A stretch of DNA of 64,000 bases. Source: an uncultured bacterium. Its GTDB lineage: Bacteria; Planctomycetota; UBA1135; GCA-002686595. The stretch spans positions 32,001 to 96,000 of the forward strand of contig CALSNU010000002.1 in NCBI GenBank assembly GCA_943787795.1, written 5' to 3'. Positions 25,901 through 39,808 of the stretch are shown here, piece by piece; position 1 is the stretch's first letter, and each line of letters begins with the position of its first letter. A program made the position numbers and the translations under genes. The notes under the pieces are model-generated. The model saw only the letters and a list, made by a program, of their open reading frames with translations, was not told the DNA's origin and searched no databases.

Positions 25901-26725
25901 ATGCTGGACTCCGCCACCATCGAACGTGACCTCGCCTTCGCCATCGCCGCCGCCCGCGACGCCGGCGACCGCGGCCTCGCCCTGCGCGCGCTCGACCGCT
26001 GGGAGGGCAAGACCCTCGGCGATGTGTGCGACCAGGCCTGCGACGGGCTGCTCCACGGGCTGCTCGCCGGACGCTACCCCGACGACGGCGTGCTGAGCGA
26101 GGAGACCGTTGACACACCCGAGCGCCTCTCCAAGTCGCGGGTCTGGATCGTGGACCCGCTGGACGGCACCAAGGAATACGCCCAGCTCCGGGACGACTGG
26201 GCCGTGCACGTGGCCCTCGCCGTCGACGGCCGCTGCGTCCTCGGGGCCGTGGCCCTGCCGTCCCAGGGCAAGGTCCTCTACGGCGTCTCGGCGGACGGCG
26301 CCGAGCGCGCGGGATTCGAAGGGGACTACAGCGGCGAGCTGGTCTCCGGCACGAGCCCCCAGGAGGGCCGCCCCCGGATCGCCGTCAGCCGCTCCCACAC
26401 CCCCGAGTGGGTCGACCGCTTCGCCGCCTCCATCGAGGGCGACCTCGTCCCCGCCGGCTCCGCCGGGCACAAGGCAGGCATGCTGCTCACCGGGGACGCG
26501 GACATGTACGTTCACAAGATCGGTCTCAAGGAGTGGGACACCTGCGCCCCGGAGACCATCGCGCGCAGCCTCGGCTGGCACGTATGCCGACTGGACGGCA
26601 CCGAGCACGTCTACAACCAGGCCGACCCACGCAACCACGAGCTCGTGATGTGCCGACCGGCCGCGCGGGACGCCGTTCTGGCCGCGCTCCAGCAGTCCGG
26701 CGCTCTCGAGGACCGCAAGGTCTGA
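25901..26725 (+). CDS. cysQ: 3'(2'),5'-bisphosphate nucleotidase / inositol monophosphatase family
   Basis: LSEE, WIVDPLDGTKE, VSRSH, GSAG.K, EWDTCAP. Confidence 0.85.
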   Translation: MLDSATIERDLAFAIAAARDAGDRGLALRALDRWEGKTLGDVCDQACDGLLHGLLAGRYPDDGVLSEETVDTPERLSKSRVWIVDPLDGTKEYAQLRDDWAVHVALAVDGRCVLGAVALPSQGKVLYGVSADGAERAGFEGDYSGELVSGTSPQEGRPRIAVSRSHTPEWVDRFAASIEGDLVPAGSAGHKAGMLLTGDADMYVHKIGLKEWDTCAPETIARSLGWHVCRLDGTEHVYNQADPRNHELVMCRPAARDAVLAALQQSGALEDRKV

Positions 26726-28508: not shown

Positions 28509-29093
28509 TCAAGCCGGCTCGTGGCGCGTGAGCCCCTCGAGGGCACGCTCCAGATCGATCGACAGCGCATCGAAGCCGTCGACGGCGTCCAGGCGCTGGC
28601 GCAGCGCGAGGACGAGCTCTCGGGCATGCCCGATGGTCTGCGCGGGTCCGCGGCTGAAGTGACTCCAGGCCTCCTCCGGGCTGCCCGCCGCGTCGAGCCG
28701 CGCCCCGAGGGAGCGCATGTTGTGCAGCTTGTCTGCGGCCTTCACCACCAGCGCTCGAAGGCTCATGGTCTCCACCGCTGCCAGCGCCTCGCCCTTGCGA
28801 GTCTCCCAGGACTCCCCCTTGCGCTCCGTCACCTCGGCAACGACGGCCCCCACCTCTGGCCCGAACTCCTCGGCGACCCGAGCCGCGGTCCAGTCCTCGC
28901 AGTCCTCCACCACATCGTGGAGCAGCCCGGCCTGGATGGTCTCGTCATCGGCGCCGCTGCGCGCGAGCAGCAGGGCCACATGGTAGGGGTGAGAGATGTA
29001 GGGGATCGGGTCCCCCTTCCGGGTCTGGCCCTCATGGGCCAGGAGCGACGCGCGCAGCGCCGCCTCCACACCTTGGGAAAAGAGCCCGACCAT
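28509..29093 (-). CDS. HD domain hydrolase, Mesh1/small alarmone hydrolase-like
   Basis: HEGQTRKG..PYISHP, GLLHDVVED, VTE, KAADKLHN; no synthetase domain. Confidence 0.9.
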   Translation of the reverse strand: MVGLFSQGVEAALRASLLAHEGQTRKGDPIPYISHPYHVALLLARSGADDETIQAGLLHDVVEDCEDWTAARVAEEFGPEVGAVVAEVTERKGESWETRKGEALAAVETMSLRALVVKAADKLHNMRSLGARLDAAGSPEEAWSHFSRGPAQTIGHARELVLALRQRLDAVDGFDALSIDLERALEGLTRHEPA

Positions 29094-29099
29094 CCGCGC

Positions 29100-29948
29100 T
29101 CAGATCTGTACGCCGAGGGGCTTCAGGAAGATGAAGCCCACGATCATGGAGGCCAGCACGAACGCAGCGAGGACGCCCAGGGGCCCGCTCAGGGGCAGCC
29201 ACCCGAGGTCGCTCTCCGGATACACGAAGCTGATCTTCTCCAGTCCGGTCCCCGAGAGCGTGTCCTCTGCGGGCCAGAGGATCGCCTCCAGCGCGCTGCT
29301 GACGCGCTCAGGCTGCATGGACCGGACGCTGACCTCGTCTCCGGCCACGATCGTCTTCAAGATCGTCTTGTCGCCGGCGGTGAGGACGATCTCGTACTCC
29401 CCGGGCTGCTCGGCGATGAACTCGACGAAGGCGCGGCCCTGCCGAGGGATGCGGGCCACCGGTGAGACGGCCGCGAGCCCCTCGGGGAACACGATCTCCA
29501 GGCCTTCGATCGCGTCGCGGTCCCCCACGACCTCGAGGGTCAAGCCGTCGCCCGCGAGCAGCTCCACGTCCGCCTGCTGAATCGGTACCGGCTCGAACCC
29601 GTAGCGAACCACCATCTGCGCGGCCACGAGCGCGAAGGGGATCGCCAGCGGAACGAAGGGCCCGAAGTTGAGCACCAGGTACTGCACGTTCCGGAACAGC
29701 ACCTTGCCGATGGCCTTGCCCACGGTCACCAGGTCGTCCTGATAGAGGCGGATCTCGATCAGGTGACCCTTGATCTTGTCCTTGGTCGCCTTGATGCCCT
29801 TCTGCCAGGAGATGTGCTTGAAGATCCACAGCGCGAGCACGCCGAAGATCCCGCTCACAAAAAGGAGCGCGAACTCATCACTGACCGCCTCGAGGGGGGT
29901 CAGGACAAGGTCGAAGAACGAGGTGACTGCGCGGTTGATCGCGTTCAT
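29100..29948 (-). CDS. 3-TM membrane protein, possible DUF106/EMC3/TMCO1 (Oxa1 superfamily) homologue
   Basis: Amphipathic N-helix, TM1, basic helical segment, TM2 (NFGPFVPLAIPF), about 125-aa soluble insert, C-terminal TM. The CDS is secure; the family is an inference. Confidence 0.7.
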   Translation of the reverse strand: MNAINRAVTSFFDLVLTPLEAVSDEFALLFVSGIFGVLALWIFKHISWQKGIKATKDKIKGHLIEIRLYQDDLVTVGKAIGKVLFRNVQYLVLNFGPFVPLAIPFALVAAQMVVRYGFEPVPIQQADVELLAGDGLTLEVVGDRDAIEGLEIVFPEGLAAVSPVARIPRQGRAFVEFIAEQPGEYEIVLTAGDKTILKTIVAGDEVSVRSMQPERVSSALEAILWPAEDTLSGTGLEKISFVYPESDLGWLPLSGPLGVLAAFVLASMIVGFIFLKPLGVQI

Positions 29949-29993: not shown

Positions 29994-30191
29994 TCAGCTG
30001 ATATAGCCGAGGCCCTTGAGCTTCTCGGTGATGTCGGCGTCGGAGCCGGCCTCGTCGAACTGGGCGAGCTCGCGCTCGAGCACGTGGTGGATGAACTCCT
30101 CGTGGGAGGCGTACCCGGCGACCTCGGCGATCTGCTTGATGCGGGTGAGGAGCTCGGGGTCGATCTTGACCTTGTTGGCGGATCCAAACAT
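29994..30191 (-). CDS. Small ribbon-helix-helix (CopG-like) protein with C-terminal LxxLGY tail
   Basis: KVKIDPELLTRIKQIAEVAGYASHEEFIHHVLEREL (beta-alpha-alpha) followed by ITEKLKGLGYIS. Confidence 0.8.
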   Translation of the reverse strand: MFGSANKVKIDPELLTRIKQIAEVAGYASHEEFIHHVLERELAQFDEAGSDADITEKLKGLGYIS

Positions 30192-30221: not shown

Positions 30222-32348
30222 CTACTGGTTGGAGAGGATCGGGCGACCGACCATTCCCGGCGTCGGGTCGACGCCGTACAGCTTCAGGATCGTCGTGGTG
30301 AGATCCTCGAGGCGCGGGTCAGCGAGCTGAACCGGCTGGTTGGTGAGCAGGACGCCGTTGACGACGCTGGGGTGCATCAGGTGACTGCCGTTGAAGGTGC
30401 CGCCGACGTTGTCGGAGAGGACGGCATTGGGGATGCGCCCCTGGGTGGCCTCGTCGGAGTTGCCGTAGCCCCAGTTGTAGCCGACCACGATGTCGGGGGC
30501 CTCGTCGAGGCGCTCCCCGCCGGCGTAGACAACGGAGGCGAGGTCCGCGCTCTTCACGACCTGCTCGCTCCCGCGTTCGTCGTCGCGGATGGCCTCGAGC
30601 TCGCGCTTCAGCCGGGCGAGGAGCTCGTCTGCTTCCGCGCCAGGCTCCACGATGCCCTGGGACTCCCGGCCCTTGAGGTTGAGGTACAGGCCGTTGAAGC
30701 CCACGCCGTAGGCCGTCGACTTCGACCAGTCCACGGCGTCGGAGATGAAGACGTCCTTGAAGCCGCTGGCGTCCTCGGGGAGCTCCTTCGCGCGGCCCTC
30801 GTTCAGGACCAGGTAGCCGTTCTCCAGGAGCCAGGTGTTGAGGCTGAACTTGCGCCGGTAGGCGGCGAAGCCGTGGTCCGACATGATCATGACGACCGCG
30901 TCGTCTCCCACGCGGTCGAGGACCTTCCCGAGGAAGGGGTCCATCTTGAGGTAGAGGTCGTCCACCACGTCGCGCCAGGTGGAGCCATCTCGGTCCGACC
31001 ACCAGCTCGAGCTCTCGTTCGCGATCGCCTCGTCGAAGAACGGGTGCTCGGGGTCCTGGTGGCGCCACATCATGTGCATGGCGAGGTCCACCGAGGAGAC
31101 GTAGAAGAAGAGCAGGCCGCCATCGTCGTTCGCGACGTAGCGGTCCAGCGCGTGGTCCAACATGCGGGCCCGCTCCAGATAGACCAGCTCCGCCTGAGCC
31201 ATGAACTCGGCGTCGGTGAAGGCGCCGTCCTTGAGGGCGGAGACCTCCTCGGCCATGCCCTGGGTGTAATAGTCGCCGATCGCCGCCGCGAGGTCCGCGG
31301 AGGCCTCCTCGGGAAAGGAGATCGTGTCGACCGGCGCTACCGGATCGAAGTTGACCGGCGAGGCGTAGAGCACGAAGTCCGGGCCGATGCTACGCAGGTA
31401 GAAGCGCACGATACCCCCGAGGTTCATGGCGCCCATGGGCGCCATCTCGAAGCTCACGCGGCAGAAGCGTGACCACTGCCCCGGGCGCATGACCACCCGC
31501 TCGGTGCCCACCTCAACCGTCGCGGTGTTGCTCCGCTCGTCGACGTAGATCGTGAGCGGCGTCGTCGCCACGGGGTCGCCGTCCTTGAGGACGTTGACCG
31601 GGCCCTCCAGCTGCGTCCGGATCGCGCCTCCGCTGACTCGAACGGCGCGGAACTTGCCGCCCGAGGTCTCCTTCTTCGCCGGCGGGTCGCTGGTGAAGAT
31701 GGTGTACGTGCCGTAGGCCGAGTCCAGCGCCGGGGTCAGCATCCCCGGAAAGCTGACGCCCTTGGAGGGCTCGACGGGGAAGTTGATCGGGACCCGGTAC
31801 AGGTCCGCGGGGACGCCGGCCTCACCGAGGATCGTCCAGAAGGCGCGCCCTGTACGGTTGGACTCCGAGCTACCGCCCGTGGGGATCTTGTACCCGGTGA
31901 GCGGGACCTCGATCCCTCCACCCTCCTCCGAGACCACGGTGGAAGGCTCGATGGAGTAGTGCTCCTTGTTGCGGTGGATGAAGTCGTAGACCCCGTGTCC
32001 ACCCGGGTTGCGACCCGTGATGAAGTTGGACCACGCCACCGGGCTCTGGGGCGGCGTGGACGTCCCGAGGGACAGCACGCCGCCCGCGGCGTCCGCGAGG
32101 CGCTGGAAGTTCTTCATCCGGTCCGGATAGCGCTCCATCACCGAGGTGAGGATCTCCGGGTCCATCCCGTCGATTCCGAGCACGACCACCCGCGGGTGAT
32201 CCGCGGGAGGCAGGGCCAGAGATCCGGACTCACGTGCCCCCCGTGACGCCTCGGCGTCGGTGGACTTGCGGAGCGTCGGGACGCCGGTCGCGAGCAACGT
32301 CGCGATGACGGCGAGGGCCACGTAGGCCGTCCATCGGGGGAGATTCAT
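30222..32348 (-). CDS. Alkaline phosphatase superfamily protein (type I phosphodiesterase/NPP-like)
   Basis: N-terminal hydrophobic anchor; VVVLGIDG, QSPVAWSNFITG, D..MH, SDHGF, GSH. Confidence 0.9.
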   Translation of the reverse strand: MNLPRWTAYVALAVIATLLATGVPTLRKSTDAEASRGARESGSLALPPADHPRVVVLGIDGMDPEILTSVMERYPDRMKNFQRLADAAGGVLSLGTSTPPQSPVAWSNFITGRNPGGHGVYDFIHRNKEHYSIEPSTVVSEEGGGIEVPLTGYKIPTGGSSESNRTGRAFWTILGEAGVPADLYRVPINFPVEPSKGVSFPGMLTPALDSAYGTYTIFTSDPPAKKETSGGKFRAVRVSGGAIRTQLEGPVNVLKDGDPVATTPLTIYVDERSNTATVEVGTERVVMRPGQWSRFCRVSFEMAPMGAMNLGGIVRFYLRSIGPDFVLYASPVNFDPVAPVDTISFPEEASADLAAAIGDYYTQGMAEEVSALKDGAFTDAEFMAQAELVYLERARMLDHALDRYVANDDGGLLFFYVSSVDLAMHMMWRHQDPEHPFFDEAIANESSSWWSDRDGSTWRDVVDDLYLKMDPFLGKVLDRVGDDAVVMIMSDHGFAAYRRKFSLNTWLLENGYLVLNEGRAKELPEDASGFKDVFISDAVDWSKSTAYGVGFNGLYLNLKGRESQGIVEPGAEADELLARLKRELEAIRDDERGSEQVVKSADLASVVYAGGERLDEAPDIVVGYNWGYGNSDEATQGRIPNAVLSDNVGGTFNGSHLMHPSVVNGVLLTNQPVQLADPRLEDLTTTILKLYGVDPTPGMVGRPILSNQ

Positions 32349-34510
32349 ACCTTGGCTTGCTCCGTGCTCTGGAGGCGATCAGGCGCGGCGCCGCTGCTCC
32401 CCATGGATCCGAACAGGCGCCTTCCCTTCATGTAGGCGGGGACGTCGACCCCGAAGAGGTCGAGCACAGAGGGCGCGATGTCCGCGAGGGTCGGGTCCTC
32501 GACGTCGATCTTGCGGTTGCACCAGAAGACGCCGGGGACAAGCCGCGGGTCGACGCAGTGATCGCCTGACCAGCTCTTGGTGTTGTCCGAGAACGTCTCC
32601 TTCGAGACGGCGCCCACGGCGCAGTCCCAGGAGTGGCGGAAGCCCCGGTGGTAGCCCACCAGCAGCTCCGGCGCCATGTCGGCGTAGGGGCCATCGTGGA
32701 CCTCGGCGGTGAGGAAGACCTCGTTGACCGCGCGCTCCCCCGACTTGGGGTCGACGAGCGCCTCGAGCTTGTCCTTGATCTCCTTGCAGAGAGCATCGAG
32801 CTCCTCGCCCGGCTCCACCTGGCCGACGCGCTCGCGGCCCTTGCGGTTGATGAAGATGCCGGTGAGGCCGAGGGTGAAGGCCTTGGTCTTCTCCCAGTCC
32901 ACCGTCTCGAACCAATCGCCCGAGGTCTCAGCGCCGTCCTTCAGCACGAGGTAGCCCTCGTCTCGAAGCCACGCGTTGAGGTTCACGCCGCGCTGGAACG
33001 AGCAGAAGCCGTGGTCGGAGACGACCATCAGCAGCGTGTCGTCGTCGCCCTCGAGCTTGTCCATGACCTCGCCAATGAGGGCGTCGGCCTTGCCATAGAG
33101 TTCGGGGATCACGTCCACGAACTCGGTCGTGTCCTTGCCCTCGTTGGCGGGGTGGTCCTTCTCCAGGTAGCGCCAGAACATGTGGCTGACGCGGTCCGTG
33201 GTGTCGAAGACGACGGTGACGAAGCCCTTCTTGGTCTTGTCCAGGACGTCCCAGAGCTGCTTCTTGCGCTCGTCCATGATCAGGTACGCCTGATCGAGGA
33301 ACGCGGGCTCGTCGATCACCCGCTCGTTCAGCGCCCAGGTGTCCTCCGCGAGGCCCAGCGTCGAGAACTTGCCCAGCATCTTGGCCAGATAGATCGAGTA
33401 GACGAAGGGATGGCTCAGCGGCATCGCCGGCGACTCAGGGTCGATGTTGATCGGCGTGACGTAGACGCTGACGGCCTCCTCATCCCAGCGCTGAATCCGG
33501 AGGCGAGCGATGCCCTGGACGCCGTCGAAGGGGATCTCCATCCAGGGCGTGTACTCCCCGACGCCGACCTCCACGGTCTCCTTCCCGATGGTGATCGCCG
33601 CCTTGGCGGTCGCCGCGTCCATCCTGACCGAGAACGGGCACTTCATCGCGATGCCGTCTGCGCCCGGCGGGCCCTTGAGGTTGGACTCGATGGCCTCCGC
33701 CCGTCGAACGACGCGGAATCGCTGACCACCCGTCGCGGCGCCCAGCTTGCTCTCGTCGGAGGTGTAGAAGCTGAACGAACCCTGGGTGCCCTGGAGGTCG
33801 GGGACGCACATCCCTGAGAGCAGCGTGCCGTTCTTGAACTTCTGCGGCGGGAAGGTGATCGGCACCCGGATGATCGACGACCACACCATGTTGGCGCCCA
33901 GCAGCTTCCAGAACGGCTGGCTCTTCTGGAGGATCTTGTAGACGGCACGCTGACCGAAGGGGACCTTCGCGAAGCCGAGGTTGATGTTCCGGGGGACCGT
34001 GCGCGTGTCCGTGGAGGACAGCACCGGCATGTAGGAGCATGGATCCCTGGTCAGGAAGTCGTAGATGTTGTGACGCGAGGCGTCGACGCCAGTTGCGAAG
34101 GTGGACCAGGCCACCGGCGAGATCGAAGGGATCGATGTACCCAGCTCGGAGTGGCAGCCTTGCGCCTGGAGCCGGGCGAAGTTGGGCATGCGGTCCGCGT
34201 ACTTCGCCGCCATCTTCGGGTCGAAGCCGTCGAGCCCGATCACGACGACCCGCTTGACCTTGGCCTTGGTCTTCCCGCGGCGGTAGACCACCTTGATGGC
34301 GGCCTTGAACGGCCAGATCAGGATGATGCCGAACGCGAGCGCGAAGGTTCCCAGGAGGACTAGCAGCGACCCAGCGGCCGCGAACCCAGCCCCAGGGCCG
34401 ATGTAGGCGAGTGGCATCACCACGTGGTCGGTCCCCAGGACGGGGGCCTGGAGCGCCGTGAAGGTCGCCGCCCCACCTGCGAGGATGGAGAGGAGTCGTT
34501 GGGATCGCAT
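32345..34510 (-). CDS. Alkaline phosphatase superfamily protein (type I phosphodiesterase/NPP-like) with AYIGPG-TM anchor
   Basis: VVVIGLDG, ISPVAWSTFATG, DRVSH, SDHGF, WSGDH; ATGA overlap with the downstream paralogue. Confidence 0.9.
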   Translation of the reverse strand: MRSQRLLSILAGGAATFTALQAPVLGTDHVVMPLAYIGPGAGFAAAGSLLVLLGTFALAFGIILIWPFKAAIKVVYRRGKTKAKVKRVVVIGLDGFDPKMAAKYADRMPNFARLQAQGCHSELGTSIPSISPVAWSTFATGVDASRHNIYDFLTRDPCSYMPVLSSTDTRTVPRNINLGFAKVPFGQRAVYKILQKSQPFWKLLGANMVWSSIIRVPITFPPQKFKNGTLLSGMCVPDLQGTQGSFSFYTSDESKLGAATGGQRFRVVRRAEAIESNLKGPPGADGIAMKCPFSVRMDAATAKAAITIGKETVEVGVGEYTPWMEIPFDGVQGIARLRIQRWDEEAVSVYVTPINIDPESPAMPLSHPFVYSIYLAKMLGKFSTLGLAEDTWALNERVIDEPAFLDQAYLIMDERKKQLWDVLDKTKKGFVTVVFDTTDRVSHMFWRYLEKDHPANEGKDTTEFVDVIPELYGKADALIGEVMDKLEGDDDTLLMVVSDHGFCSFQRGVNLNAWLRDEGYLVLKDGAETSGDWFETVDWEKTKAFTLGLTGIFINRKGRERVGQVEPGEELDALCKEIKDKLEALVDPKSGERAVNEVFLTAEVHDGPYADMAPELLVGYHRGFRHSWDCAVGAVSKETFSDNTKSWSGDHCVDPRLVPGVFWCNRKIDVEDPTLADIAPSVLDLFGVDVPAYMKGRRLFGSMGSSGAAPDRLQSTEQAKV

Positions 34511-34911
34511 CGTCGGGAGGGGGGGCGTGGGAAGTGCAATCGGCTGGGCCGAGCGCCGCTGAGTTTATCGGCAATCGGAAGGTCATCCATCCAGCCGAGG
34601 TGGCAGCAATTGCTGAGCGAGCGAGCCCAGGGCGCGATTTGACGCGGCTAGTCCCGGCCGCCGTCTGGGTACGTGCACGGGTGCGGGTACGTTCCAACGG
34701 CGCCACGGTGAGCAGCGGTCACACGCGGGGCGCTTGGGGTCGATGCGTCATCCAAGCCCCCTCTCGAGCGTTGACCGGCTCTGAATCGTCCAGGAACGGG
34801 ACTTGGGGCTCTCGCCAACGGAAGAGCGGCATCGGGACTGAAGTCTCCCGGCCCAAACGGTCGAACGCGTGTGAAGAAGGTGGCTTCCAAGGTCCCCATC
34901 TGAAGAACCCC

Positions 34912-35472
34912 ATGAAGACCAGCCCCAAACTCGCTGCCCGGACCCGCGGCCCGGCAGGACGAGGAGGATTCACCCTCCTCGAGGTCCTGATCACCGTCGC
35001 AGTGCTGATGGTGGGCCTCCTGGCCATGACGTCCACCTCGGTCGTCGTGAACTCGCTTCGCCGGAGCGCGTCCGACCGATCGCGCGCCCACGCCGCGGTC
35101 CAGGCCATCAGCCAGGACCTGCTCTCCGTGGCACGCGTCTCGAGTGAAGACCCGGCGCTCTGGGCCGGCCAGATCCTCCAGGCCTACGGGCCGGATGGTT
35201 CACCCGGGAACGAGCTTCCGATCACCGGGCTCGACCCATGGACGGGCTCAGATCACATCGCCACGGTCACGATCATCACCGACGAGACCGTCACGGACTC
35301 CGCGATCGGGACGGACATCGGCATGCCGCGGGACCTCGATGGGGATGGGCTCGCCTCCAACTCCGACGTCACGGGCAACGCGTCGCTCCTGCCCGCCATC
35401 GTCGACGTCCGCTGGCGCCACGGCGGCGGCGAGTTCGAGGTCCGCCAGGTCGTCTACCTGCTCCGGTTCTGA
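34912..35472 (+). CDS. Type IV pilin-like / pseudopilin protein (PilV-like)
   Basis: Class III signal G|FTLLEVLITVAVL; DLDGDG motif. Confidence 0.88.
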   Translation: MKTSPKLAARTRGPAGRGGFTLLEVLITVAVLMVGLLAMTSTSVVVNSLRRSASDRSRAHAAVQAISQDLLSVARVSSEDPALWAGQILQAYGPDGSPGNELPITGLDPWTGSDHIATVTIITDETVTDSAIGTDIGMPRDLDGDGLASNSDVTGNASLLPAIVDVRWRHGGGEFEVRQVVYLLRF

Positions 35473-35474
35473 CC

Positions 35475-36518
35475 ATGAAGCCCGGCCCGTCTACTCCCAG
35501 TCGAGCCGATCAGGGTGGATTCACCTTGATCGAGGTCAGCATCGCCTTCTCGGTGATGACGGTCATCCTGCTGGCCACCTCGGCCGTGCTCCGCAGGGAG
35601 ACCCAAGGGATCACCGAGCTCCAGACCCTGGGGCAGTCGGAGCAACGAATAGAGGGCGCCTTCCAGAAGATCCTGAGGACGATTCAGTTTGCTCGGGGCT
35701 TCTCGCCCGAGACCAACCTCGTGAGCACCCTCAGTGCGAGCGAGACCGGCGAGGTGCTGATCGGCGCGATCGCCGGGTTTCCACAGAGCGGGTACCTCGT
35801 GCTGGACCGGGGACTCGAGAATGAAGAGATCCTCCGCTACGAGTCGCACGCCCCGACCGGCAGCCAGCTCTGGACCCTGGATCGCGGCGTGGAGGGCACC
35901 GTTGCACGGGGCCACAGCGCCGGGTCATCTGCCATCTGGAGCGGGCTGGCCCGCCCCATTGAGAACCAGACGGACCCTGTCCCCTCCGAGTACGACGGCC
36001 GGACCGACGACCTCAGAGGAGAGATCTACTTCATCGGTCGAGGCACGGGGCTCAGCTTCCAGGTGCCAGTTGACCCCGCGAACACCGGCAGCTACGTCAC
36101 GGGCTCCGGACCTCGCTGGGGAGCCCAGGTGTCCGGCGGAGACGTCGAGGGTGCCTATGGCGCCGTCACCTACATCGCCTCCACCGAGGTCGTCGAGTCC
36201 CAACGAGACTTCGACTTCAACGAGGACGGGGACCTGGACGACACCTTCGACCTGGGCCGAGTCGTCCTCCAGAGCTGGAGCAGTGACCCGGACGAGGCGC
36301 TCAGCATCGGCATGACCCCCTCCATCATCCTCCAGGAGAAGGGCGCCTATGGCAGCGACATGGACGACGACGGATTCGAGGACCCCATGTTCCTCTGGTC
36401 CTCCGACCAGGGCCGCGTCCGCCTCCGCTTCTTTGTCCTCGCTGGCACCATCAACGGCCAAGAAGTCGTCCGGCGCTTCGAGACCATTATCCACCTCTGC
36501 AACGGATCTGCGGAGTGA
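35475..36518 (+). CDS. Type IV pilin-like / pseudopilin protein (PilW-like)
   Basis: Class III signal G|FTLIEVSIAF; DFNEDGD and DMDDDG motifs. Confidence 0.88.
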   Translation: MKPGPSTPSRADQGGFTLIEVSIAFSVMTVILLATSAVLRRETQGITELQTLGQSEQRIEGAFQKILRTIQFARGFSPETNLVSTLSASETGEVLIGAIAGFPQSGYLVLDRGLENEEILRYESHAPTGSQLWTLDRGVEGTVARGHSAGSSAIWSGLARPIENQTDPVPSEYDGRTDDLRGEIYFIGRGTGLSFQVPVDPANTGSYVTGSGPRWGAQVSGGDVEGAYGAVTYIASTEVVESQRDFDFNEDGDLDDTFDLGRVVLQSWSSDPDEALSIGMTPSIILQEKGAYGSDMDDDGFEDPMFLWSSDQGRVRLRFFVLAGTINGQEVVRRFETIIHLCNGSAE

Positions 36519-37054
36519 ATCGACCTGCGGCTCGGCGGCCGCACCAGACCCTGAGAATCATGCACAAGCGTACGCGCAAGCTCATCAACAAGCCTCTCCA
36601 GCTGAAGCTGGTCGGGATCTTCACGGCCATGGGGGCGACGTGCGCGTTGTTCCAGGTGATCCTGATCAACACCACGCTTCTGGAGCTCGCACAGTCGATC
36701 CCCAACGGCGGTGAACAGCTCCTCCAGGAGTCCCGGGCCCTCGTGCTGAAGAACACGCTGTGGACCCTCGGGGTGCTCGTGCCGCTCATGGTCTGTGTCG
36801 GCATCGCTGCCACACACCGCGTCGCTGGCCCGGCGTATCGCATGACCCAGCACCTCAAGGCCATCGCGGAGGGCGGGGCGGTTCGCCACTGCAAGATCCG
36901 CAAGCACGACGAGTTCTCCGAGCTCTGCGATGCCCTCAACGGCGCGCTGGATCAGCTCGCTCCCGCCGCCGACCGCGGAGAGGAATTCAGCGAGGACTGG
37001 ACCCAGGACTCCCCGGCCCCGGCCGAGCAGGAGCTGAGGGACAAGGCGGCCTGA
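36515..37054 (+). CDS. Two-TM membrane protein with HAMP-like segment and no output domain
   Basis: KRTRKLINKPLQ, two TMs, THRVAGP.YR...IR.HDEF..L..ALN. Confidence 0.8.
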   Translation: MNRPAARRPHQTLRIMHKRTRKLINKPLQLKLVGIFTAMGATCALFQVILINTTLLELAQSIPNGGEQLLQESRALVLKNTLWTLGVLVPLMVCVGIAATHRVAGPAYRMTQHLKAIAEGGAVRHCKIRKHDEFSELCDALNGALDQLAPAADRGEEFSEDWTQDSPAPAEQELRDKAA

Positions 37055-38067: not shown

Positions 38068-38149
38068 GGGGAGAGCAGGAGAATAACCGCCGAAGAGCGT
38101 TCCCGTCGCAACCGTGCCTCGGTCCGGCCGAACCGCTAGCCTCTCCCCC

Positions 38150-39808
38150 ATGGATCCGTCCGAGCCGCGCACTGACGACGACGACGCTGCCCGCTCGTCG
38201 CAACCTCCCCCGGCCGCCCCGGCCGGGACCGGGAGCGGCGCCTCCATCGCGCGGATCTGGCTGCTCCCCGCCGCGCTTGCCATCGTGTTGGTCGCGCTCT
38301 TCCTGCGCGGGAAGGGCCTGGACCAGGGCCGGATGTCGCCGGACGACGGCGAGTTCCTCTGGTCCGCACAGATCCATCAGATCGACCTCGCCAGCGGCCC
38401 GGGCGCTTGGCTGGAGGAGGACAGGGAGTGGGCCGCGGACCTCGTCCGGGACTTCAGCCAGGACGAGGGGCGCTCGACCTATCCCCACGGCTACCTGCAT
38501 CAACTGAGCACCCGCTACGCCGCTCGGCTCGGCGCCAAGGCGGGCTTCGGTCGCGTGGCGGCCCTGCGCTTGGACCAGGCCATCCTGGGCGCGTTGACCT
38601 CCATCCTCGTGCTGCTCTGGCTTCGTCGCGTCGCGCCGGGGGAACCCCTGGTCGCCATCGCGGGGGGCGGACTGATGGCCGTCCAGCTCGGGCACGTGAT
38701 GGTCTCCCGCACGGGCTGGGGCCAGGCGGCCTGCACCTTCTTCCTCGTCTGGATGATCTCGATCGCCTGGCGCATGTACACGGAGGCGGGCGAGCGAGAC
38801 ACGCGGGCCCTCGCGCGCGGCGCCGCGGGGATCACGGCGACATCGCTGCTGGCGTACGGGTTCCACGAGATGGCCACCGTGTACACCTTCGTGCTCGCGG
38901 TCCTCGTGGTGCTCCTGTTCCGCACGGGCCCGACGGGCCAGAGCGTCGCTCCGTGGCGCTCACGCCGGGTCGCATGGGGCCTCGCGGCCTGCATCCCGGT
39001 GGGCGCCCTCACCGTCGGCCTGCTGTTCTTCAGCGAGTTCGCCCGGGACAAGTGGTTCTCCTCATCCCTCGACGCCACCTACGGGTGGTGGCAGCGGCGC
39101 GAGCTCGCCTTTGGCTACCTCCTCGACGTGGTGGCCGTCCCGCGGCAGATCTCCATCCCGGTGCTCGCCCTCGCGCTGCTCGGCCTCGCCGGCGCTCTGA
39201 CCCGCGACGCGAAGTGGCTTGTGTGGCTGGTCGCCTGGGCCGTCGTCCCCACCCTGCTGCTGTTCCTGCGCTTCAACTTCCCCGAGCTGGCGCGGATCTA
39301 TCTCCCCGTGGACGTGATCCTCGTGGTGCTGGCCGCGGAGGGGCTCGGCCTCCTCTGGACCGTGGCCCGGGGCCGACTCGGCGGCGCCCTCGCCGACGGC
39401 ACCGCGGCGCTGGCGGTGGTGTGGTGCGGCCTCGTGACCTGGTCGACGCTCTTCGTCGGCCCTGGAGCCGCCCTCCATGTCCCCGCGGTCCACCACCCTC
39501 TCCCCGAGGACGCCCATCCCGCCGGCTCCTTCGACGACATCGCCGCCACCCTGCGGGCCACCGAGATCACAGAGCCCGTCGCGGTCGCCTTCGTGTGGGG
39601 TCCCCTCTTCCGGATCCTGGACCTCGGCATCCCCGCTCGAATCGTCGAGCTGGATGCCCTCCCCGAAGGCGAGCCGGCGCCGCGCATCGTCGTCGCCCCT
39701 CGACGCTCCATGGAAGCTGGAGGGCGCATGCGCTCCGAGGGTGGGCCCTATGAGCTCGCCGCTCGGGACCGATACGATCACCTCGGCCTCTACGTCCTGC
39801 GCCGCTGA
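38150..39808 (+). CDS. Polytopic GT-C fold glycosyltransferase (ArnT/PMT-like)
   Basis: About 11 TMs; acidic SPDD loop after TM1; YPHGYLH; RIYLP. Confidence 0.65.
   Translation: MDPSEPRTDDDDAARSSQPPPAAPAGTGSGASIARIWLLPAALAIVLVALFLRGKGLDQGRMSPDDGEFLWSAQIHQIDLASGPGAWLEEDREWAADLVRDFSQDEGRSTYPHGYLHQLSTRYAARLGAKAGFGRVAALRLDQAILGALTSILVLLWLRRVAPGEPLVAIAGGGLMAVQLGHVMVSRTGWGQAACTFFLVWMISIAWRMYTEAGERDTRALARGAAGITATSLLAYGFHEMATVYTFVLAVLVVLLFRTGPTGQSVAPWRSRRVAWGLAACIPVGALTVGLLFFSEFARDKWFSSSLDATYGWWQRRELAFGYLLDVVAVPRQISIPVLALALLGLAGALTRDAKWLVWLVAWAVVPTLLLFLRFNFPELARIYLPVDVILVVLAAEGLGLLWTVARGRLGGALADGTAALAVVWCGLVTWSTLFVGPGAALHVPAVHHPLPEDAHPAGSFDDIAATLRATEITEPVAVAFVWGPLFRILDLGIPARIVELDALPEGEPAPRIVVAPRRSMEAGGRMRSEGGPYELAARDRYDHLGLYVLRR

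Follow-up and report, generated by a model that had tools for sequence, protein, structure and literature searches.

This locus raises the question of what a membrane protein with the layout of an archaeal or eukaryotic insertase is doing in a bacterium. Two studies treat the DUF106 type, with three transmembrane helices (TMs), as archaeal and eukaryotic, with bacteria using the 5–6-TM YidC (PMC8887752, PMC5868721), and two others likewise treat the type as archaeal and eukaryotic (PMC8662606, PMC5898192). The original prediction read the protein, here P0001, as a minimal Oxa1-type insertase; the homology stands, but the insertase function fared less well, with a gene context that points to the transfer of a group across the membrane. 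Coordinates refer to the window, the whole 64,000-nucleotide stretch of DNA analysed, unless a locus is named (Table 1).

The open reading frame of P0001 contains every sequence motif quoted in that prediction. The gene is real, because it has 552 relatives at E ≤ 0.001 (8,000 candidates scored) and a profile search of its family retrieved 1,961 clusters at 50% identity. Close relatives, where named, belong to Planctomycetota; look-alike clusters in the Atlas are mostly from Acidobacteriota and Aminicenantota, with few members of known phylum. Hydropathy (three TM stretches, at about residues 21–43, 91–115 and 257–275) and the helices of an AlphaFold2 model (pLDDT 94.2, pTM 0.87; helices at 2–20, 24–46, 49–68, 73–95, 98–116 and 255–273, beta region at 136–240) predict a three-TM core, and the hairpin region gives coiled-coil-like matches. 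Across 120 homologues, the loop between TM1 and TM2 has a mean of 9.8 K/R versus 3.6 D/E and the insert 11.9 K/R versus 19.3 D/E; the first 14 residues have a hydrophobic moment of 0.66–0.69. From this positive-inside bias and hydrophobic moment we predict an N-out/C-in orientation with an amphipathic H0, and the insert between TM2 and TM3 is an Ig/filamin-like sandwich with a predicted outward orientation. The layout proposed at the outset (amphipathic helix, three TMs, basic helical segment and beta-rich insert) is borne out by hydropathy, charge bias and AlphaFold2, as is the topology of three TMs with a predicted cytoplasmic hairpin.

Table 1 Features of the P0001 locus and of the related sulfate-activation operon
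Feature	Position	Strand	Length or residues	Remarks
Ylp1/DUF106-like 3-TM protein P0001 (family A)	29100..29948	-	282 aa	
Amphipathic helix H0	29889..29945	-	residues 2-20	predicted outer face; aligns with Ylp1 N-terminus
TM1	29811..29879	-	residues 24-46	conserved S32 (85%), K44 (K/R 74%)
Basic helical hairpin	29664..29804	-	residues 49-95	predicted cytoplasmic; Q49, K56, Y90 in at least 90% of 130
TM2	29601..29657	-	residues 98-116	P97, P104, Q111 (89%), R115 (60%)
Ig/filamin-like insert	29220..29543	-	residues about 136-243	predicted periplasmic
TM3	29130..29186	-	residues 255-273	F263, S267 (S/T 96%)
RHH-like small protein	29994..30191	-	65 aa	ends in L-x-x-L-G-Y; candidate soluble tyrosine carrier
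PDE2, AlkP-superfamily (PF01663)	30222..32348	-		predicted exported; N-terminal hydrophobic helix
PDE1, AlkP-superfamily (PF01663)	32345..34510	-		signal peptide followed by YIGPG, a single TM and basic residues; predicted cytoplasmic catalytic domain
YIGPG-TM segment of PDE1	34250..34405	-	residues 36-87	putative tyrosine shuttle in the membrane; occurs as a separate microprotein in other bacteria
HD-domain protein	28509..29093	-		frequent, not constant, last gene (65/80 loci)
Inositol-monophosphatase-family protein	25901..26725	+		near cluster in 35/80 loci
RHH-like LGY protein, ATP sulfurylase, short AlkP-fold protein, APS kinase	L082:2984-6878 (G000:C2:98984-102881)			

The kinship of P0001 becomes visible at the level of the family. 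A profile of 130 sequences (A2) placed MJ0480/Ylp1 (5c8j) first among 177,635 PDB sequences (E = 4.9 × 10−9), with an alignment that spans H0, TM1, the hairpin, TM2 and TM3. PF01956 was matched by 19 of the 130 family members at E ≤ 1 (best, 4.8 × 10−8), and neither by P0001 alone nor by any of 120 close relatives; the suggested kinship with DUF106/Ylp1 thus holds with the deep profile, but not with the single sequence or its nearest kin. Database annotations already name some family members DUF106. Judged by the family profile, P0001 belongs to the EMC3/TMCO1-like Ylp1/DUF106 branch of the Oxa1 superfamily, here in a bacterium. It has in common with archaeal Ylp1/MJ0480 (DUF106, PF01956, COG1422, PDB 5C8J), EMC3, TMCO1 and Get1 the three TMs, the predicted N-out/C-in orientation and the cytoplasmic hairpin, and family A resembles Ylp1 in its conserved Trp and in the aromatic residue and Ser on TM3. 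Unlike these proteins, P0001 is bacterial, carries an Ig-like periplasmic insert, is patchy in its occurrence and coexists with YidC; unlike Ylp1, it lies in putative sulfation operons rather than beside secY, its groove is partly less polar and no EMC6-like gene was seen among its neighbours.

The hydrophilic groove has been described by polar residues at TM3 positions −3, +3, +7 and +11, an aromatic residue at −1, a polar TM1 residue and an interface Trp (bioRxiv 10.1101/2020.12.20.422553), and we mapped these positions through the profile-to-Ylp1 alignment. The family has F/Y at −1 (88%), S/T at +3 (96%), K/R at +11 (82%), the Trp (80%) and S32 in TM1 (85%); P0001 itself has Val at the interface-Trp site. 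Positions −3 and +7 are apolar, and the groove looks less polar than that of archaeal Ylp1. The genes of archaeal members adjoin secY or ribosomal genes (PMC5898192). None of these lies beside P0001 or its relatives in the loci examined, in which the neighbours are AlkP, RHH-like, HD and sulfur genes; this lowers the case for an orthologue of Ylp1, not that for homology.

Bacterial YidC/Oxa1/Alb3 proteins (PF02096) belong to the same superfamily by way of Ylp1, with 5–6 TMs in YidC compared with three in P0001. The 130-sequence profile scored six planctomycete YidC proteins at E values of at least 490, and PF02096 matched neither P0001 nor its close relatives; the one PF02096 match in the genome is another gene, a separate YidC. 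Among 301 Planctomycetota genomes, the family profile matches 64, of which 41 matches are strong (family A) and 23 weak. As the genome of P0001 and all 40 other carriers of family A keep YidC, P0001 is unlikely to be a housekeeping insertase.

The genes around P0001 are strongly conserved. The order PDE1–PDE2–small RHH-like protein–P0001 is fixed, with the small gene in 79 and the PDE genes in 74–76 of 80 loci (those that lack them are short contigs), and it recurs in 6 metagenome loci as far as these reach; in distant families the small gene is present in 21 of 22 loci. The 65-aa protein matches RHH_1 at E = 0.051 only. Both PDE1 and PDE2 match PF01663, named phosphodiesterases in Pfam, far better than PF00884. 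The PDE2 proteins of distant relatives have lipobox-like or twin-arginine signals, so that the two paralogues are predicted to lie on opposite sides of the membrane. The inositol-monophosphatase-family protein is possibly a CysQ-like PAP phosphatase (our label). One genome (G025) has the operon split over two contigs, with PDE2 and the Oxa1-like gene on one and PDE1 and the RHH-like gene on the other (L156/L195). Beside the operon in the window are divergent pilin- or pseudopilin-like genes with N-terminal GFTLxE motifs (34660-37054), kept in only 11–16 of 80 loci, and further on a multi-TM protein that is GT-C glycosyltransferase-like by eye, a possible source of acceptors (38114-39808).

At its N terminus, PDE1 carries a Y[IV]GPG motif in all 90 genes with this end inside a locus, a count to be read with the profile having been seeded from motif-bearing genes and many of the 90 being kin. 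Ala occupies position −1 in 83 and −3 in 67 of the 90; residues 1–31 have no charge and the TM is followed by a mean of 7.5 K/R. From this succession of a signal-peptide-like stretch, Y[IV]GPG, a single TM and basic residues, we predict that a short tail with a terminal tyrosine lies on the outer side and that the catalytic domain is cytoplasmic. A profile of the helix matches 43 of the 301 Planctomycetota genomes, namely all 41 carriers of family A and two others (G245 and G003), the latter out of 260 genomes outside family A; relatedness among these genomes and among the paralogues means that such numbers are not independent. The suggestion that the protein might be dedicated to its operon is supported by this co-occurrence (41 of 41 carriers) and by the fixed gene neighbours. 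In two genomes of one family, a possible extra small AYIGPG open reading frame lies just upstream of PDE1 (L157:4289-4621, L163:3996-4352).

Genes for sulfate activation lie close by. In the genome of P0001, an operon about 33 kb from the P0001 gene combines sat (ATP sulfurylase) and cysC (APS kinase) with genes for a short AlkP-fold protein and another RHH-like LGY protein; a divergent gene there encodes a 191-aa lipoprotein-like product that also ends in an LGY-type motif. Elsewhere these genes are often directly upstream of the family A operon, with sat in reach in 12 and cysC in 22 of 80 loci (flanks of at most 8 kb). No recognisable PAPS sulfotransferase was found in the family A operons of the loci examined.

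Such enzymes do occur in the two genomes that have the helix outside family A, the carriers of what we call family C. There (G245 and G003), the helix forms a separate microprotein of 80–91 aa in the gene order arylsulfotransferase (PF14269)–microprotein–Oxa1-like gene–PAPS-type sulfotransferase (PF13469), and the same four genes are on a plasmid of the cultured alphaproteobacterium Paroceanicella profunda (L199:5112-8697, NZ_CP040820.1). In a profile comparison, the membrane protein of family C was matched to family A (98.8%, E = 4.6 × 10−17). The core shared by G245, G003 and P. profunda indicates that PDE1 and PDE2 are replaced there by unrelated sulfuryl-transfer enzymes. Caprazamycin is reportedly sulfated in two steps by Cpz8 and Cpz4, a PAPS sulfotransferase and an arylsulfotransferase that act through an aryl-sulfate intermediate, as the family C operons might; the shuttle is said to be a small molecule and to cross no membrane, unlike the membrane peptide with a translocating partner predicted here. 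Cpz4 is treated in PMC13426309. Plasmids of Paracoccus saliphilus and Tateyamaria omphalii carry the microprotein, a sulfotransferase and an arylsulfotransferase but no detectable Oxa1-like protein; the sulfotransferase has a membrane domain of its own, without a match to family A. These two plasmids count against a strict need for the Oxa1-like part. Compact sulfation operons with YVGPG microproteins occur on several alphaproteobacterial plasmids (L199:5112-8697, L212:3770-6800, L213:3713-6749). The operon in L213 is followed by glycosyltransferase genes, which hints at glycans as acceptors.

We propose that P0001 is not a general insertase but part of a trans-membrane sulfuryl relay in which the tyrosine of the helix would carry the sulfate along a path offered by the Oxa1-type groove, a reading for and against which we judge the case to be about evenly balanced. 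PAPS made in the cytoplasm by way of sat and cysC would be the source of sulfate. The short, Gly/Pro-rich N-tail of the helix would dip through the hydrophilic groove in the way that such tails pass when a protein is inserted; a cytoplasmic enzyme (PDE1 here, a PAPS sulfotransferase elsewhere) would sulfate the tyrosine; and after the tail had gone back, an exported enzyme (PDE2 here, an arylsulfotransferase elsewhere) would take the sulfate from the aryl ester and pass it on. The relay draws on the homology to Ylp1 and the 3-TM layout, on YidC being kept, on the almost one-to-one association with the helix, on the two flanking enzymes of AlkP or sulfur-transfer folds, one predicted to be cytoplasmic and one exported, and on the replacement of PDE1 and PDE2 in family C. 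Fusion of the helix to a 720-aa enzyme also favours a cycling carrier over a one-time substrate. Against the relay count the AlkP fold of PDE1 and PDE2, which are not known sulfotransferases, the lack of a recognisable PAPS sulfotransferase in the family A operons examined and the less polar groove (TM3 −3 and +7).

There is precedent for parts of such a scheme. Tyrosines shuttle acyl groups across membranes in DltX and PatA (PMC12148441), and arylsulfotransferases take sulfate from aryl-sulfate donors, with tyrosine peptides among their acceptors (PMC13426309). DltB/DltX/DltD and PatA/PatB resemble the present operon in that the conserved tyrosine sits on a membrane microprotein or a fused peptide, with a loader on one side and an extracytoplasmic transferase on the other (PMC12148441). 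Unlike in those systems, the tyrosine here is at a signal-cleaved N terminus (Y[IV]GPG) rather than in a C-terminal FxYxxF, the predicted cargo is sulfate and the membrane part is Oxa1-like; no MBOAT or SGNH proteins and no C-terminal FxYxxF were present among the Pfam matches and termini of the operon.

Further tyrosine carriers might be the L-x-x-L-G-Y tails of the small RHH-like proteins and of about 21 non-Cys sulfatase-fold proteins, although this step is more weakly indicated. In the genome of P0001, the LGY motif ends both small RHH-like proteins and many sulfatase-fold proteins, and it is internal in two arylsulfotransferases. GY tails occur in 0 of 25 Cys-type versus 21 of 25 non-Cys sulfatase-fold proteins, using a pattern loosened after a stricter first count (0 of 18 versus 16 of 35) and dropping 3 of 53 rows without an aligned site. 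A control motif ending in G-F near C termini is nearly as frequent genome-wide (17, compared with 21 for G-Y; other controls 2–5), which weakens this part of the case. The tailed sulfatase-fold genes without the Cys motif, about 21, are spread over contigs C1–C8 (L083, L085–L098). Their products are likely to be transferases misnamed sulfatases.

A sister family, B, bears on the relay from two sides. Some of its members pass the PF01956 cut-off, and its match to family A extends along the whole protein. In all 18 loci examined it lies behind, or is fused to, a PPDK_N/PEP-utiliser (dikinase-like) enzyme, and in two fusions the soluble enzyme is joined through one extra hydrophobic helix. This is again a group-transfer enzyme, which counts for the relay; no YIGPG-like helix was found near family B in the 18 loci, which counts against it. 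Family B might be the phosphoryl equivalent of the relay, or a bacterial pairing of the EMC1/EMC3 kind. Its loci (L167-L184; for example, L183:8705-16926 and L173:7106-10159) also contain PQQ-like beta-propeller and FG-GAP genes, and one such propeller is weakly similar to an EMC1 propeller model (E = 5.4 × 10−5).

The same evidence can be read in other ways. In the strongest alternative, a dedicated insertase or membrane chaperone might insert, orient or hold the signal peptide–YIGPG–TM hairpin, which has a topology like that of M13 procoat, together with the other membrane proteins of the operon; sulfate would then cross by another route, or the helix would be sulfated once before insertion. 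Known superfamily members do act in membrane protein biogenesis (PMC5868721), a partner with a short N-out tail and one TM has the typical shape of a Sec-independent substrate, and the one-to-one co-occurrence fits a dedicated substrate equally well. We nevertheless regard this as rather unlikely: no carrier tested lacks YidC, insertion would not require the invariant residue, a tyrosine at the mature N terminus, two plasmids have the helix but no detectable Oxa1-like gene, and family B is fused to a soluble phosphotransfer enzyme. It is improbable that the groove instead flips a lipid-linked or small phenolic carrier of sulfate (or phosphate) between the two enzymes, with the YIGPG helix as a structural partner like EMC6 or Elp1. 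EMC6-like partners have several TMs, whereas the helix has one and an invariant exposed tyrosine, and no carrier-synthesis gene is conserved in the clusters examined. The reported scrambling of lipids by insertases (bioRxiv 10.1101/2023.09.01.555937), dimerisation of 3-TM members through the far face of TM3 (bioRxiv 10.1101/2020.12.20.422553) and the lack of a tyrosine helix in family B would suit such a path.

The relay might also carry another cargo in family A; the AlkP-fold pair would then move a phospho- or phosphodiester group, and the association with sulfur genes would be looser than it appears. The preference of PDE1 and PDE2 for PF01663 fits this, as does the distance of sat and cysC (33 kb here, and in reach in the few loci counted above); we consider it very improbable, given that the LGY motif ties the operon to the sat/cysC operon and to two arylsulfotransferases and that in family C two sulfotransferases flank this core. 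A general housekeeping insertase of the archaeal type, as a second or replacement YidC, is hardly credible despite the homology to Ylp1, given its patchy occurrence (41 of 301 genomes), its position away from secY and ribosomal genes and the retention of YidC.

The sulfuryl relay, if correct, would answer how PAPS-derived sulfate could reach the periplasm and would provide periplasmic arylsulfotransferases, the physiological roles of which are poorly understood (PMC13426309), with their missing aryl-sulfate donor. It would also recast thousands of LGY-tailed ‘sulfatases’ as sulfotransferases and give the insertase fold a new job, the first function of the Oxa1 superfamily in group translocation. 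More broadly, and tentatively, bacteria may hold a large undescribed Ylp1/EMC3-like branch in which the insertase stroke has become a catalytic cycle. An N-tail with tyrosine at its tip would move back and forth in the groove and so export activated sulfate in families A and C and possibly, with the dikinase-like partner, phosphate in family B. We found no description of the family, its motifs or the relay in the open literature searched. Even on a cautious reading, the roughly 1,960 clusters of this bacterial family make up a new branch. Its family C form in G003 has 152 aa and no Ig insert (L194:9515-9973), a minimal bacterial Oxa1-like protein suited to structure work.
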